Shown in pieces: positions 1 through 4,213 of a stretch of DNA of 64,000 bases; position 1 is the stretch's first letter, and every line of letters starts with the position of its first letter. Under the pieces are notes generated by a model. The model saw only the letters and a program-made list of their open reading frames with translations. It was not told the origin of the DNA and made no database searches. This DNA is from a virus (lineage: Duplodnaviria > Caudoviricetes), in IMG/VR virus record IMGVR_UViG_3300005076_000003, positions 1 through 64,000 of that record; one strand, 5' to 3'. The translations under genes and the position numbers were made by a program.

Positions 1-35
1 TAAGTTTGTGGCATTAAACAGAGGGAAGGTAGCCG

Positions 36-63
36 AAGTGTTCGATTCACTGTGAGGACTCCA
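36..63 (+). tRNA. tRNA-like 3' end (T-arm + CCA); 5' part outside window or degenerate
   Basis: AGTG-TTCGATT-CACT T-arm (37-51), then 7 nt + discriminator + CCA at 61-63; anticodon not assignable. Confidence 0.3.
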
Positions 64-70
64 CAACCAA

Positions 71-143: not shown

Positions 144-761
144 ATGGTAGTTACACTTGAAAGTCCTTTTAACACCCTCTACAGAAAAGCCTATCTTAGG
201 GAAGACAGTAAGGGTAGAAGAAGGGTTGATTTGATTAATAGTAGAAATGATAGAACGACAGTTTCTTACGCAAGATATTTAATGTGTGTTAAAATTGGGT
301 ACGTGTTGTCAAATGACTATGAGGTTGATCATATTGATGGTAATTGTAATAATGATGAAATTTCGAATCTACAAATATTGACCAAAGAAGAACACCTAAA
401 GAAAACAACCAAAGAGGTTACAACTGGTCGGAGTGTTAGGACGCTTTCTTGCATTTGTTGTGGTAAAGATTTTGAAAGAGAAGTTAGGAACATAAGAAAT
501 TCAAGATCAATTTGTAGCAGGTCGTGTAACGGAAAGCTATCAACTAACCTTAAAGCTAAAAGTAAAGCTTTAAGTTATGAAGAAGTTCTTGAGATAAGAA
601 GTTTGTTTGTTAAGGGTGATAAGGTGTACGGCATAGCTGGACTAGCCAGACTTTCGGAGTTAGTAAAAACACTTTATCTAAAGCGATATACGATGAAGAT
701 TATGCATTGTAAAACTACACAGTTGGTTGGGAGTTCGAAGCTCTCCTACGAGACCACTTAA
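144..761 (+). CDS. HNH homing endonuclease with Zn-finger and HTH; probable -1 frameshift near 653 (natural stop 710-712)
   Basis: YEVDHIDGNCNNDEISNLQIL HNH motif, CxxC..CSRSC; the -1 frame gives LARL-FGVSKNTLSKAI, a typical HTH end. Confidence 0.85.
   Translation: MVVTLESPFNTLYRKAYLREDSKGRRRVDLINSRNDRTTVSYARYLMCVKIGYVLSNDYEVDHIDGNCNNDEISNLQILTKEEHLKKTTKEVTTGRSVRTLSCICCGKDFEREVRNIRNSRSICSRSCNGKLSTNLKAKSKALSYEEVLEIRSLFVKGDKVYGIAGLARLSELVKTLYLKRYTMKIMHCKTTQLVGSSKLSYETT
713..756 (+). pseudogene. Orphan 3' half of a tRNA
   Basis: GGGAG-TTCGAAG-CTCTC T-arm (729-745), CTACGAG, discriminator A, CCA (754-756); no matching 5' half adjacent. Confidence 0.55.
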
Positions 762-797
762 TGCGGAAACCAAGATGGTGTAGTGAAGTAAACGAAT

Positions 798-1430
798 AGT
801 TAAGTTTATGAATCGAGAGTTAGAGCATTTCTAATAATTCCGCTCCATATTCAAAGAATATCCAAGAAGCTTAGAAGAATGTGACTTTAGCATTCTGCTG
901 GTATGAAAGGTAGTGACGATTACCGATTAGACATACGATGCTCAAATACTTGGATTGTTAACAACACCAAACAAGCCTAGATACTTCGGTAAATGCTCAA
1001 ACTGTTTGGTTACTTAAACAGGTGTTTTGGCGGTATTCACCTTAACAAAATACCACCCTCATTTCAGATATAGGTGTTCCACTACCTTCATACTAAACTA
1101 CAACTCTAGCGTTTTGCACAGAGAAGAACGTGTTTAGATAGTAAAATGCAAAGGTGTTATGACCTTCCACCGTACACAAAGGTCAACTAATACTTCGGTT
1201 AGTGTATCGGTTGTCACGTACTGACGCACGATTACTTTTAAAGGTCTAGTAGAAATGCTACACCGCCTAGCTCCTCCATAACGTGATTGGAAACGCACTA
1301 GGTAAGTTGACTGCTAGGAAAGTCTAGCAATCTGCTAAACTAGCAATTTTATTGAGAAGTGAATGAAGTGAGCGGAAACTACTAGGAACGGTGTACAACG
1401 GTTTTAGAAAGTCTTAACATGGACTTAGCT
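798..1430 (+). ncRNA. Large (~630 nt) multi-helix ncRNA, ROOL/GOLLD-like context; family unconfirmed
   Basis: No ORF >=60 aa; 13-bp closing helix 798-810/1418-1430; long-range helices 824-833/1250-1259, 838-845/1370-1377, 901-915/1080-1093, 1259-1270/1382-1395; two cUUCGg tetraloops. Confidence 0.75.
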
Positions 1431-1491
1431 CAGTTGGTTAGAGCAACGGACACTAATCCGTAGGTCGGTGGTTCAAGTCCACCAGTCACAG
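1419..1491 (+). tRNA. Pseudo-tRNA (Arg-TCT-like body; 6-nt anticodon loop, broken acceptor stem, no CCA)
   Basis: TAGCTCAGTTGGTTAGAGC D-arm, ACGGA/TCCGT stem with loop CACTAA, GGTGG-TTCAAGT-CCACC T-arm; only 4 acceptor pairs. Confidence 0.75.
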
Positions 1492-1527
1492 TTCATTTCA
1501 TCAATAAAATTATAATAATTAGGAATT

Positions 1528-1942: not shown

Positions 1943-2023
1943 CCCTAACAGGAGTTGTGGAGAGGAAAGCTGAAGTGATGCAATGTCACTATTATGTGCT
2001 TTCAGTGCTAAGACAGGTAGGGT
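1943..2023 (+). ncRNA. Structured RNA with glycine-riboswitch-like core motifs
   Basis: GGAGAG..GCTGAAG..GCAA..CTTTCAG..GACAG in the expected order; stems AAGTGA/TCACTT and CCCTA/TAGGG. Confidence 0.3.
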
Positions 2024-2067
2024 GGTCATTAGTACACTACTTATATAAGAATAATAAAGGATAAATC

Positions 2068-2325
2068 ATGGCAGCTCAAACCTTCATCTTAACAACAACA
2101 CCAACAAAGATATTAGATGGAACACGCGCTGCGTATGTTCAAGAGATTGTTGGTACTGGAACTAAATTCACTGTATCTTCATCCGCAACTCCTCCAAACA
2201 CTTCAACTACACCAGCATGCACTATTCTAAAGAATGATTTACAAGTGTCTGCGGGTTTCCCTATTTGGGCTTGGAGTCCAACTGCATCAAATATCACAGT
2301 AACTGTCCTAACATCTGAACAATAA
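2068..2325 (+). CDS. Small beta-rich protein, probable virion/tailspike partner
   Basis: 85 aa, Thr/Val-rich, good RBS, directly upstream of the tailspike. Confidence 0.6.
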   Translation: MAAQTFILTTTPTKILDGTRAAYVQEIVGTGTKFTVSSSATPPNTSTTPACTILKNDLQVSAGFPIWAWSPTASNITVTVLTSEQ

Positions 2326-2341
2326 TAAAAAGGAATAAGAA

Positions 2342-4213
2342 ATGATTGCAAGTGGTGGAACAGCTACATTAGGTTTATACGATTTTAAAGCTGGTTTAGA
2401 TGAATTTGGTAAGATCAATTATTGGGGATTACAGACTAACGGCTACCCAATCAACAAAAGGGTTATGCTTACGGATGGAAACATTGTTCGATCAACCGTA
2501 ACTAATAATACTGCAAATCCGAACACTGATATGACTGGATGGTTATTTGATTCGGAAGCATTGACAATTATAAAACTAAAATCCTTAAAACCATCTAGTG
2601 GCACCTTATATTATTTGCAAGATAAAGCAGGATATTTTCAGTGGGTCGTTGGTGACTATTCTTCAATGGTGTTACTAGATGTAAATGAGGGAATTTACAT
2701 CAAAGCGACTTTTATATCCTCAAGTTTAGGGTGCTGGAAGCGCATATTTTCAGGATTACCTCTTGCAACTTGGTTCGGTGATATGGCAAACTCAGCAAAC
2801 ATTCAAAATGCAATTAATGTTTGTAAATATCATAAAGGTATTTATTTTGACGGTGCATCTATGTCTGGCTCATCTTCAATAACACTTGATGGGTTCAATG
2901 ATTTTGAAATTAAAGCTCAAAATACGACAGTAACTGGATCTGCAACAAAACCATTTATTATAAAAAACTCAGTAAATGTAAGAGCCTTTGGTTTTAAGCA
3001 TGATTATACAGGTTTTTCAAGCGGACTTAACGCCACTCTTTTTGATGTTGAAAATTCAACGAATATCCAGATATTTGAAAATCAGACAAATACATCAGCA
3101 ATCTCTACTCCGAAAAATTGCAAACAAGTTCAGATATATAAAAATACAGTTGACTTAGGGGCAATGCAAAATCAAGGAATTCAATTACAAGGCTGTAGCA
3201 ATGTTTATATTTATCTAAATACTATTAAAAACAGCCTAATTGACGGTATTAAAATCACAGGTGATGTAAATTCAGGTGTGTTTATTTACAATAACCACTT
3301 TGAAAATCTGGGTGGATTTGAAACACAAGGAGATTGTGTAGATTGTTATGGTGGCGGTACAAATGTAGTTATTTATAAAAATACGGCTAAAAATTGCAGA
3401 CAACTCGCAAATATTAAAAAGGGTGACTTGTCAACAGGAGATGCACCAACTTCAAAAATCTATGTCGGTGAAAATATCTGCGTCGATGTTGGAAATCTAT
3501 GTCAATTATGGAATGTAGACCATGTTTCTGTAATGAACAATAGGCTAATTCATACCCCTGATTTTGTTCCGTCAACACAAATATCTCCATCATTGATATA
3601 CATTCAGTTTACAACCGAAGATTTAAAGATCATTAACAATGAGTTTATCGATGTAATTGCACCAACGGCAGTAATTTATGTTTATGGTGGGGATGCCAAA
3701 AAGCTAGATGTTATTGGAAATAGTGTTACAGGAACTGCAACGACATCACAGTTTGCCGATATTTACATCACCGCAAATAATGGACATATAAATATTGAGA
3801 ACAACAATATTGGTCATGTTGGGACTAATCTAGCTGTAAGAGTTCAGCCGCCAACTACAACAGGGCAGCATGTAATTAATATTGATAAAAACAAGTTTAA
3901 AAACGGCATTCGAATTGACAACATGCCGACCGCAAGCATTGTTAATATTTTTGAAAACTCAATACCTTCTACTGTAGCAAGGCCTATTCATTTCGCAGCA
4001 ACAACAAGTTCTCCGATTATTAACATTGGTAGAAATAGCTGGCAAGGTCTGGCGAAAGGGACTACCGCACAAAGACCAATACTACCGACTGCTTTGGCGG
4101 ATGCTGTTTTGTATTCTGGGCAGCAATACTTCGATACGACGCTAATCAAGCCAATTTTTGTGAAGCAGACAAATCCGATGGTATGGGTAGATTCAACAGG
4201 CGCAACCGTGTAA
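2342..4213 (+). CDS. Tailspike / capsule depolymerase (right-handed beta-helix)
   Basis: GYPINKRVMLTDGNIVRSTVTNNTANPNTDMTGW particle-binding motif of Acinetobacter phage spikes; N/I/V-rich PbH1-like repeats; C-terminal GTTAQRP..YFDTTL..WVDSTG motif. Confidence 0.85.
   Translation: MIASGGTATLGLYDFKAGLDEFGKINYWGLQTNGYPINKRVMLTDGNIVRSTVTNNTANPNTDMTGWLFDSEALTIIKLKSLKPSSGTLYYLQDKAGYFQWVVGDYSSMVLLDVNEGIYIKATFISSSLGCWKRIFSGLPLATWFGDMANSANIQNAINVCKYHKGIYFDGASMSGSSSITLDGFNDFEIKAQNTTVTGSATKPFIIKNSVNVRAFGFKHDYTGFSSGLNATLFDVENSTNIQIFENQTNTSAISTPKNCKQVQIYKNTVDLGAMQNQGIQLQGCSNVYIYLNTIKNSLIDGIKITGDVNSGVFIYNNHFENLGGFETQGDCVDCYGGGTNVVIYKNTAKNCRQLANIKKGDLSTGDAPTSKIYVGENICVDVGNLCQLWNVDHVSVMNNRLIHTPDFVPSTQISPSLIYIQFTTEDLKIINNEFIDVIAPTAVIYVYGGDAKKLDVIGNSVTGTATTSQFADIYITANNGHINIENNNIGHVGTNLAVRVQPPTTTGQHVINIDKNKFKNGIRIDNMPTASIVNIFENSIPSTVARPIHFAATTSSPIINIGRNSWQGLAKGTTAQRPILPTALADAVLYSGQQYFDTTLIKPIFVKQTNPMVWVDSTGATV

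Follow-up and report, generated by a model that had tools for sequence, protein, structure and literature searches.

Does the non-coding DNA near the start of an Acinetobacter-type phage genome encode one large, ornate RNA or a row of smaller ones? The interval in question, positions 798–1430, belongs to the IMG/VR virus record IMGVR_UViG_3300005076_000003 (Caudoviricetes), which is 81,910 bp long and rated complete; its first 64 kb form the window analysed here, and coordinates are those of the window unless a relative is named. An initial annotation described the interval as a single RNA of about 630 nt, closed by a 13-bp helix and belonging either to the ROOL or GOLLD RNAs or to a new large class. 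GOLLD RNAs are often found near tRNAs and in prophages and are possibly co-transcribed with them, and ROOL RNAs, which average 581 nt, occur near tRNAs and in phages (PMC5737381). We arrive at a different reading, to which we assign a probability of about 0.6: the interval lies within a non-coding tRNA-gene region in a lytic phage of the Acinetobacter type, where it forms a co-transcribed plus-strand array of independently folding, exchangeable RNA cassettes. Two of these, a compact core and a long clamp stem with a tRNA-like insert, are covariation-supported motifs that match none of 4227 Rfam families, and a tRNA-like RNA, here called T1, is a third conserved element. Comparison with relatives shows that T1, core and clamp are under selection for RNA structure, and that cassettes have been gained, lost and swapped singly among close relatives.

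Conserved core, clamp and tRNA-like elements

We gathered about 25 homologous loci (labelled L002, L004 and so on) from phage records, IMG/VR and metagenomes, comprising Acinetobacter phages and contigs from wastewater and the sea. Among named phages, those of Acinetobacter are closest to the region (MD-2021a, BS46, B9, Ab3, Herod and Acjo_20), which agrees with the earlier view of the sequence as phage DNA with an Acinetobacter link. The interval sits in a non-coding gap (762–1527) between an HNH endonuclease open reading frame (ORF, 144–761) and a small ORF (1528–1779) that is followed by further ORFs. Its description as non-coding and placed among tRNA genes also held, given that the largest ORFs within it encode 36 and 54 amino acids and that its neighbours are tRNA-related. 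Six features carry the argument:

763–847, plus strand: T1, an 85-nt tRNA-like RNA with conserved copies and compensatory changes
1201–1335, plus strand: core, 135 nt, with five helices (S1, a GNRA-capped S3, S4 enclosing S5, and S6)
1345–1363, plus strand: 5′ strand of the S7 clamp, directly 3′ of the core, pairing with 1492–1511
1378–1412, plus strand: H hairpin, enclosed by the clamp; its 10-nt loop is invariant and its stem covaries
1419–1491, plus strand: tRNA-like domain, also enclosed by the clamp; it retains D and T arms and a 4-bp acceptor, has a 6-nt anticodon loop and lacks CCA
1492–1511, plus strand: 3′ strand of the S7 clamp, ending 17 nt before the start codon of ORF 1528–1779

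In an alignment of 22 sequences, the core has 31 pairs with 94.7% of cells paired, and 13 of the pairs show compensatory changes. None of 500 shuffles reached any of five measures, and controls slid along the sequence were about 30% paired. Frequent G-U pairs identify the plus strand as the folded one. One hairpin is GNRA-capped in all cases, and an optional UUCG hairpin is present in some lineages. Some 60 of 136 core positions are invariant among phages that are about 70% identical, or have no detectable similarity, outside the RNA blocks. The loops of S1 and S5 are identical in 22/22 sequences and mutually complementary over 6–7 nt, which suggests that they form a kissing interaction. A covariance model of the core (R1) scores 120–159 bits in nine loci. 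The window, BS46, MD-2021a, Ab3 and several contigs each yield a single core with it; Herod and L006 yield weak, partial copies only, and B9 and Acjo_20 yield no match. No copy was found in 185k bacterial and archaeal species genomes, so the core has no prophage or host anchor. Further partial sequences accompany some cores: a second, diverged copy of the S4–S6 part lies in tandem 60–230 nt 3′ of the core in L035 and L016 and at 2742–2903 (minus strand) in L006, and Herod carries two weak copies of the S6 hairpin region 5′ of its clamp. The S6 hairpin was also considered as a mimic of a CRISPR repeat, and this was dropped because it seems unlike the Acinetobacter type I-F repeat.

The clamp is a 19-bp helix with one bulged A. 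Across 12 distinct arm pairs, 98% of cells are paired and 10/19 pairs have compensatory changes. It encloses inserts of 30–130 nt that are unrelated to each other among relatives, and the core is thus seen with quite different inserts. In the window, L027, L030, Herod and Acjo_20 the insert consists of the H hairpin followed by the tRNA-like domain; the alignment of these five sequences over clamp, hairpin and domain (A3) gives 44 consensus pairs, 18 of them compensatory, including those of the 4-bp acceptor, D and T stems. The Rfam tRNA model matches 1422–1487 with 45.7 bits (threshold at least 29) over model positions 4–67 only, and ARAGORN does not call this sequence. Features of a decoding tRNA are absent from the domain: its loop has 6 nt in place of 7 nt with U33, it has four acceptor pairs and not seven, and it lacks CCA. 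The anticodon arm is degenerate in all copies: some have a 6-nt loop, others a 7-nt loop with A33 or a 5-nt loop on a 4-bp stem. CCA is absent from all of them, and at the DNA level the domain is closest to tRNA-Met genes of phages. We conclude that it is a structural domain derived from a tRNA rather than a tRNA that decodes. The clamp unit recurs at 90.8% identity in Acjo_20, an unrelated 43.8-kb phage, with unrelated flanks and no core; there, a promoter-like site precedes it and a 10-bp hairpin with a T-run follows 9 nt after it. Acjo_20 (L024) also has a second clamp-like long stem with a 32-nt insert at about 1440–1500, directly 5′ of the clamp that holds the tRNA-like domain, which indicates that clamps can occur in tandem.

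Besides a 6-bp acceptor-like stem, T1 has three hairpins: a 3-bp mini-hairpin, one with a 5–6-bp stem whose 10-nt loop is invariant, and a third; its 3′ end is TCCA. Ten distinct copies, each exactly 85 nt long, were found in window-type contigs, MD-2021a (two copies), BS46, B9, Ab3 and Herod; besides the one in the window, they include L002 2484–2568 and 3111–3195, L004 2984–3068 and L025 (Herod) 2675–2759. Five of the 15 consensus pairs have compensatory changes. T1 is not called as a tRNA by ARAGORN and matches neither the Rfam tRNA nor the tRNA-Sec model at E ≤ 10, and it departs from the cloverleaf in that its loop has 10 nt, its acceptor has 6 bp, and two bases that separate the third hairpin from the acceptor strand are unpaired. 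In B9, where core and clamp are both missing, T1 is the chief element separating the promoter region from the endolysin gene. A group I intron in a tRNA gene was considered for this element and dropped, given that both T1 copies in MD-2021a are complete and that there is no Rfam match.

Mosaic blocks and the proposed single molecule

The region 5′ of the core divides into five further blocks:

851–957, plus strand: block B, optional, closed by a 7-bp stem (860–866/949–955) and holding the left arm of a 14-bp helix
958–1019, plus strand: block C, an internal-loop hairpin similar to the abiF motif and tipped by a cUUCGg loop (982–991)
1020–1071, plus strand: block D, an optional hairpin
1072–1148, plus strand: block E, an expanded hairpin that abuts the core directly in distant relatives
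1149–1200, plus strand: block F, optional, with two small hairpins (1160–1185 and a cUUCGg hairpin at 1192–1199)

BLAST and MAFFT comparison of more than 20 relatives reveals a mosaic in which T1, B, D, F and the block of H hairpin and tRNA-like domain are each present or absent independently. Block B is found only in L035 and L036 and is absent from L014, L032, L028, L039, L029 and L034. The tip of block C is replaced by longer inserts in L016, L028, L032 and L039. Block D is absent from L014 and L029 and lies elsewhere in L016. The hairpin of block E has lost its 3′ closing strand and the following A-rich linker in the window, and the 3′ strand is missing in L029 too. Block F is replaced in L036 and L034 and absent from L032. 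T1 is swapped for ordinary tRNAs in L035, and most relatives have unrelated sequence in place of the H and tRNA-like block (about 1365–1491). The block borders are confirmed by contigs from RNA libraries (four runs, three studies), which join precisely across blocks: 850 to 958–960, skipping block B; 1019 to 1072; and 1148 to 1198. These runs were found with this stretch and cover about 715–2000 and nothing in 2001–3000, beyond which point (2000) the tailspike is variable; we used their joints alone, as border evidence, and did not read depth or coverage as expression or RNA ends. The heptamer AGGTGTT stands at the 5′ edge of successive blocks (1020–1026, 1069–1075 and 1152–1158), and deletions between blocks fall at it, with 7 nt of microhomology in the RNA-library contigs; further copies lie some 450 nt short of the genome end and in L015 and L016. 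Conceivably it marks a hot spot of recombination or signals processing; its spacing and context led us to reject it as a promoter or Shine–Dalgarno site.

A single molecule of fixed length is difficult to reconcile with this mosaic, given that blocks come and go independently in close relatives. The helices, hairpins and both cUUCGg loops listed in the initial annotation are all present where it placed them; what they mean is a separate matter. An uninterrupted Watson–Crick/G-U stem of at least 13 bp appears in 18/60 dinucleotide shuffles of the same 633 nt, so the helix said to close the RNA (798–810/1418–1430) is at chance level and carries no weight. Its 5′ arm lies within the conserved stem-loop of T1 and its 3′ arm is the start of the tRNA-like domain, placing the two arms inside separate conserved elements, and no relative that we collected has a counterpart. 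A long ‘closing helix’ is expected by chance in a 600-nt AT-rich stretch, and to take it for the frame of a molecule is a tempting over-reading that these controls correct. Of the other proposed long-range helices, 824–833/1250–1259 bridges two local hairpins that each covary alone, and two of its positions are unpaired in the closest relative, L014. Another, 838–845/1370–1377, pairs the 3′ acceptor strand of T1 with an additional copy of its own 5′ acceptor sequence, and 1259–1270/1382–1395 competes with covariation-supported helices (core S3/S4 and the H hairpin). Only 901–915/1080–1093 (7+7 bp with a bulge) appears non-random; six relatives without the left block still have the right arm of this helix, and the sole change in the left arm (L035 and L036) is uncompensated.

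Folding energies tell the same region apart. The plus strand of 798–1430 folds better than shuffled controls (z = −3.5, 0/20; minus strand, z = −1.8), but the signal is concentrated in 1201–1511 (z = −4.06, 0/100 shuffles), for which the minimum-energy fold recovers the covarying helices, and not in 958–1200, which folds no better than shuffles (z = −0.88). The real structured unit therefore starts 400 nt inside the proposed interval and ends 80 nt beyond its 3′ border. In the consensus fold of eight full-length relatives, no helix ties blocks C–F to the 3′ unit. The idea of a new large RNA class survives in reduced form, as a composite of about 311 nt (1201–1511) made of the 135-nt core and the clamp with its tRNA-like insert, although core and clamp are also found apart.

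Two alternative uses of the same DNA were set aside. The small ORFs 1027–1137 and 1134–1298 (minus strand) were dropped as coding sequences as both span optional blocks, and a DNA-level site such as pac was dropped given that compensatory changes and strand-specific G-U pairs point to RNA. Pattern scans of IMG/VR with a 14-mer and with the clamp and H loop returned chance matches only, for the latter mostly in coding DNA.

Known RNA families

The Rfam set of 4227 models was run on the window at gathering scores and on 1–2100 at E ≤ 10. Only tRNA passes gathering scores in the window; in 1–2100 there is no GOLLD, ROOL, group I or II intron, ribozyme or riboswitch, and besides tRNA only weak, chance-level matches were returned. 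GOLLD shares with this locus that it is phage-borne, non-coding, multi-helix and placed among tRNA genes, and the interval does lie amid a truncated tRNA-Arg, T1 and the tRNA-like domain in phage DNA. ROOL resembles it in context and in a size near that of the proposed interval. Membership of either family in a gammaproteobacterial phage would have context and size in its favour, with several hundred nucleotides, many helices and tRNAs alongside, and GOLLD is present in the related phage Herod. However, neither GOLLD (RF02032, threshold 150 bits) nor ROOL (RF03087, threshold 99.1 bits) matches in the 64-kb window, in 1–2100 at E ≤ 10 or in the whole 81.9-kb genome at E ≤ 1. The GOLLD model, the one of the two with a positive control, is effective in this phage group, scoring 225 bits (E = 2e-62) in Herod (L025, MW316732.1) at 3476–3844, and the window region has no DNA similarity to the Herod GOLLD. 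Membership is refuted at the level of sequence and structure models, and we hold it to be highly improbable. The conserved unit here is also far smaller than GOLLD (135-nt core, about 311 nt with the clamp), and, unlike ROOL, its consensus fold is a row of local domains with one long-range clamp. Clamp cassette and GOLLD coexist in Herod and so are not alternatives. The Herod GOLLD is un-annotated and lies between tRNA-Asn and tRNA-Asp in a tRNA array; a literature search for GOLLD or ROOL in Acinetobacter phages found no relevant report.

Among small RNAs, the YrlA family offers a parallel to the clamp cassette, in that a long stem formed from both ends is combined with a tRNA-like module of D and T arms without a usable anticodon; here the stem has 19 bp and both parts covary. 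RNase P and tRNA-modifying enzymes recognise YrlA RNAs, and 22 phages carry related sequences (PMC4201824). Their genes lie within 4 kb of a Ro60 gene, a GNCGAA(N)G motif stands near the 5′ end, and the ‘anticodon loop’ of Deinococcus radiodurans Yrn1 has 6 nt (PMC4201824), as does that of the tRNA-like domain in the window. In contrast to YrlA, the GNCGAA motif that marks the Ro60-binding stem does not occur in 1345–1380, the genome has no TROVE/Ro60 gene in a search for which control genomes gave matches, and tRNA is the only Rfam family matched.

Block C resembles the abiF motif (RF03085) in its layout of stem, internal loop and hairpin, and 967–1010 matches all conserved internal-loop nucleotides of the 37-nt model, with a score of 25.3 bits versus a gathering score of 37 (E = 0.12–3.2). 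Relatives with longer block C tips have no abiF match, and no abiF-type gene was found among the nearby ORFs checked, which match HNH_3 or have no Pfam match. A phage-borne mimic of an abortive-infection-associated RNA would be of interest if real.

The tRNA cluster of phage T4 encodes two small, stable RNAs of about 120–140 nt, species 1 and species 2 (rnaC and rnaD), which have no known function, are co-transcribed with the tRNAs and are matured by host RNases. The locus is like them in carrying structured RNAs in a phage tRNA cluster; rnaC and rnaD are not known to have a clamp or kissing-loop core.

Genomic setting, processing and alternative readings

One further feature marks the 5′ edge of the gap:

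717–757, plus strand: what remains of a tRNA-Arg(tct) gene, its 3′ half, serving as the 3′ end of HNH ORF 144–761

The product of ORF 144–761 has a Pfam HNH_3 match. An intact tRNA-Arg(tct) gene stands at the equivalent place in the close relatives L014, L028 and L035, according to ARAGORN, Rfam and the alignment. Since L014 keeps the whole tRNA where the window has only its 3′ half, the alignment indicates that an HNH_3 endonuclease cassette replaced the 5′ half of the gene, with the last codons of the ORF crossing the surviving 3′ half. L036 carries the same insertion as the window. A promoter-like site (TTGACA, 17 nt, TAAACT) lies about 240 nt before the record end, which is upstream of the array across the arbitrary record junction. 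Several copies of a spaced TTGGTGT-type motif, in the last ~450 nt of the genome, lie 5′ of this site and may be candidate binding sites of a regulator. No terminator-like site was found within 1–2100. A second kind of tRNA-like element spans the record start, from the genome end (about 81,830–81,910) to window positions 1–65, with a canonical T arm and a 3′ TCCA; its homologue in L016 lies directly 5′ of block C, and the terminal stem has a compensatory change. A search of IMG/VR with a neighbouring 623-aa protein as query found no related loci.

We favour separate cassettes because Acjo_20 has the clamp without the core, B9 has T1 alone and the core occurs with varied clamp inserts, and because the sequence 3′ of the clamp differs by phage (T1, ten tRNAs and GOLLD in Herod; T1 and the endolysin gene in MD-2021a-type phages; ORF 1528–1779 in window-type phages) with no helix tying C–F to the 3′ unit. 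Several observations weigh against such an array. C, E, core and clamp keep the same order in all window-type relatives, which favours a larger unit, and in phages of the window and MD-2021a types a clamp always comes after the core. The block E hairpin and linker lie immediately 5′ of the core in L015, L032, L006, L011, BS46 and L026; together with the constant pairing of core and clamp, this leaves some probability to a single RNA of core plus clamp, or to one longer still. The 14-bp complementarity between B and E exceeds chance expectation (roughly estimated at ~0.02 per sequence). Close relatives make up most of the alignments (effective sequence number ~1.4), so that some covariation counts reflect few events, and the S1 and S5 loops, being invariant, yield no covariation test of the kissing that we infer for them. 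The RNA-library data are assembled contigs, of a kind that cannot show transcript starts, ends or processing, and cleavage of the array by RNase P and RNase III is likewise something that we infer.

A rival reading is a single large composite RNA of about 550 nt (958–1511, perhaps from 851), in which C, E, core and clamp would be the conserved backbone and B, D, F and the clamp insert the variable parts. It would be a new large phage RNA class paralleling GOLLD, with its variable 5′ half. The co-occurrence and order of the four backbone pieces, the direct contact of E with the core in distant relatives and the B/E complementarity argue for it, as do the location of the variable pieces, which, as in other large RNAs, occupy hairpin tips or the stretches that separate helices, the conserved GNRA loop and two invariant complementary loops, the lack of an internal promoter or terminator, and the true GOLLD in the equivalent tRNA array of Herod. 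Yet the consensus fold has no long-range helix joining the 5′ blocks to the 3′ unit, 958–1200 folds at the level of its shuffles, core and clamp cassette occur without each other in other phages, and E in the window has no closing strand, and for these reasons we regard the composite as unlikely. A narrower idea concerns 1201–1511 alone as a new phage structured RNA class, whose invariant loops (6–7 nt, with palindromic ACGU) would pair between molecules into RNA-only multimers while the clamp docks exchangeable ‘cargo’ domains. This we consider distinctly unlikely; if true, the multimers would be functionally analogous to ROOL and GOLLD assemblies and evolutionarily unrelated to them.

The region might instead act in cis: as a long 5′ leader, or as a platform for processing, it would control the late ORF or ORFs downstream, and the clamp would set the mRNA 5′ end or gate translation. 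In window-type phages the clamp does end close before the start codon of ORF 1528–1779 with no terminator between, and its 19-bp helix is a plausible RNase III site, as such sites are known in T7 and in rRNA operons. But T1 separates the clamp from the next gene in MD-2021a-type phages, ten tRNAs and GOLLD follow it in Herod, a terminator-like hairpin follows it in Acjo_20 and the ribosome-binding site is unpaired in the consensus fold, all of which make a leader improbable. Debris is what the truncated tRNA-Arg would suggest: decayed tRNA genes and recombination scars left by the traffic of homing endonucleases, with no RNA function. The broken anticodon loop and acceptor of the tRNA-like domain, the truncated E and the scarcity of covariation and lack of an energy signal in blocks C–F fit this picture. 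Decay would not, however, maintain core, clamp, H hairpin and the arms of the tRNA-like domain by compensatory changes, nor keep so many core positions invariant among such divergent phages or a clamp cassette 91% identical in an unrelated one, and we find it quite improbable that the whole is mostly debris.

For the array of cassettes, we propose the following course of events. Transcription would start at a sigma-70-type promoter about 0.5 kb upstream, across the record junction, and run through the array together with the tRNAs and the downstream ORF. The tRNA-like folds (T1 and the tRNA-like domain of the clamp) would recruit RNase P, acting at these folds, and 3′ trimming enzymes, as for YrlA RNAs (PMC4201824), with trimming of T1 to its encoded CCA. 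RNase III would possibly cut the 19-bp clamp, and host enzymes would in this way release stable pieces of roughly 85 to 310 nt. The core, compacted by the kissing of S1 and S5, would be the functional payload and would act in trans, during infection, on a factor of the host or the phage, and tRNA mimicry would serve mainly maturation and stability.

Phage tRNA clusters harbour enigmatic structured RNAs such as GOLLD, ROOL and the stable RNAs of T4, and this locus adds the core, the clamp and T1 to them. Such RNAs behave as cassettes that are traded between unrelated phages, in the same arrays as GOLLD. Given that cultured carriers exist (BS46, Herod, Acjo_20 and Ab3), the role of the RNAs in tRNA clusters becomes testable in a genetically tractable host.

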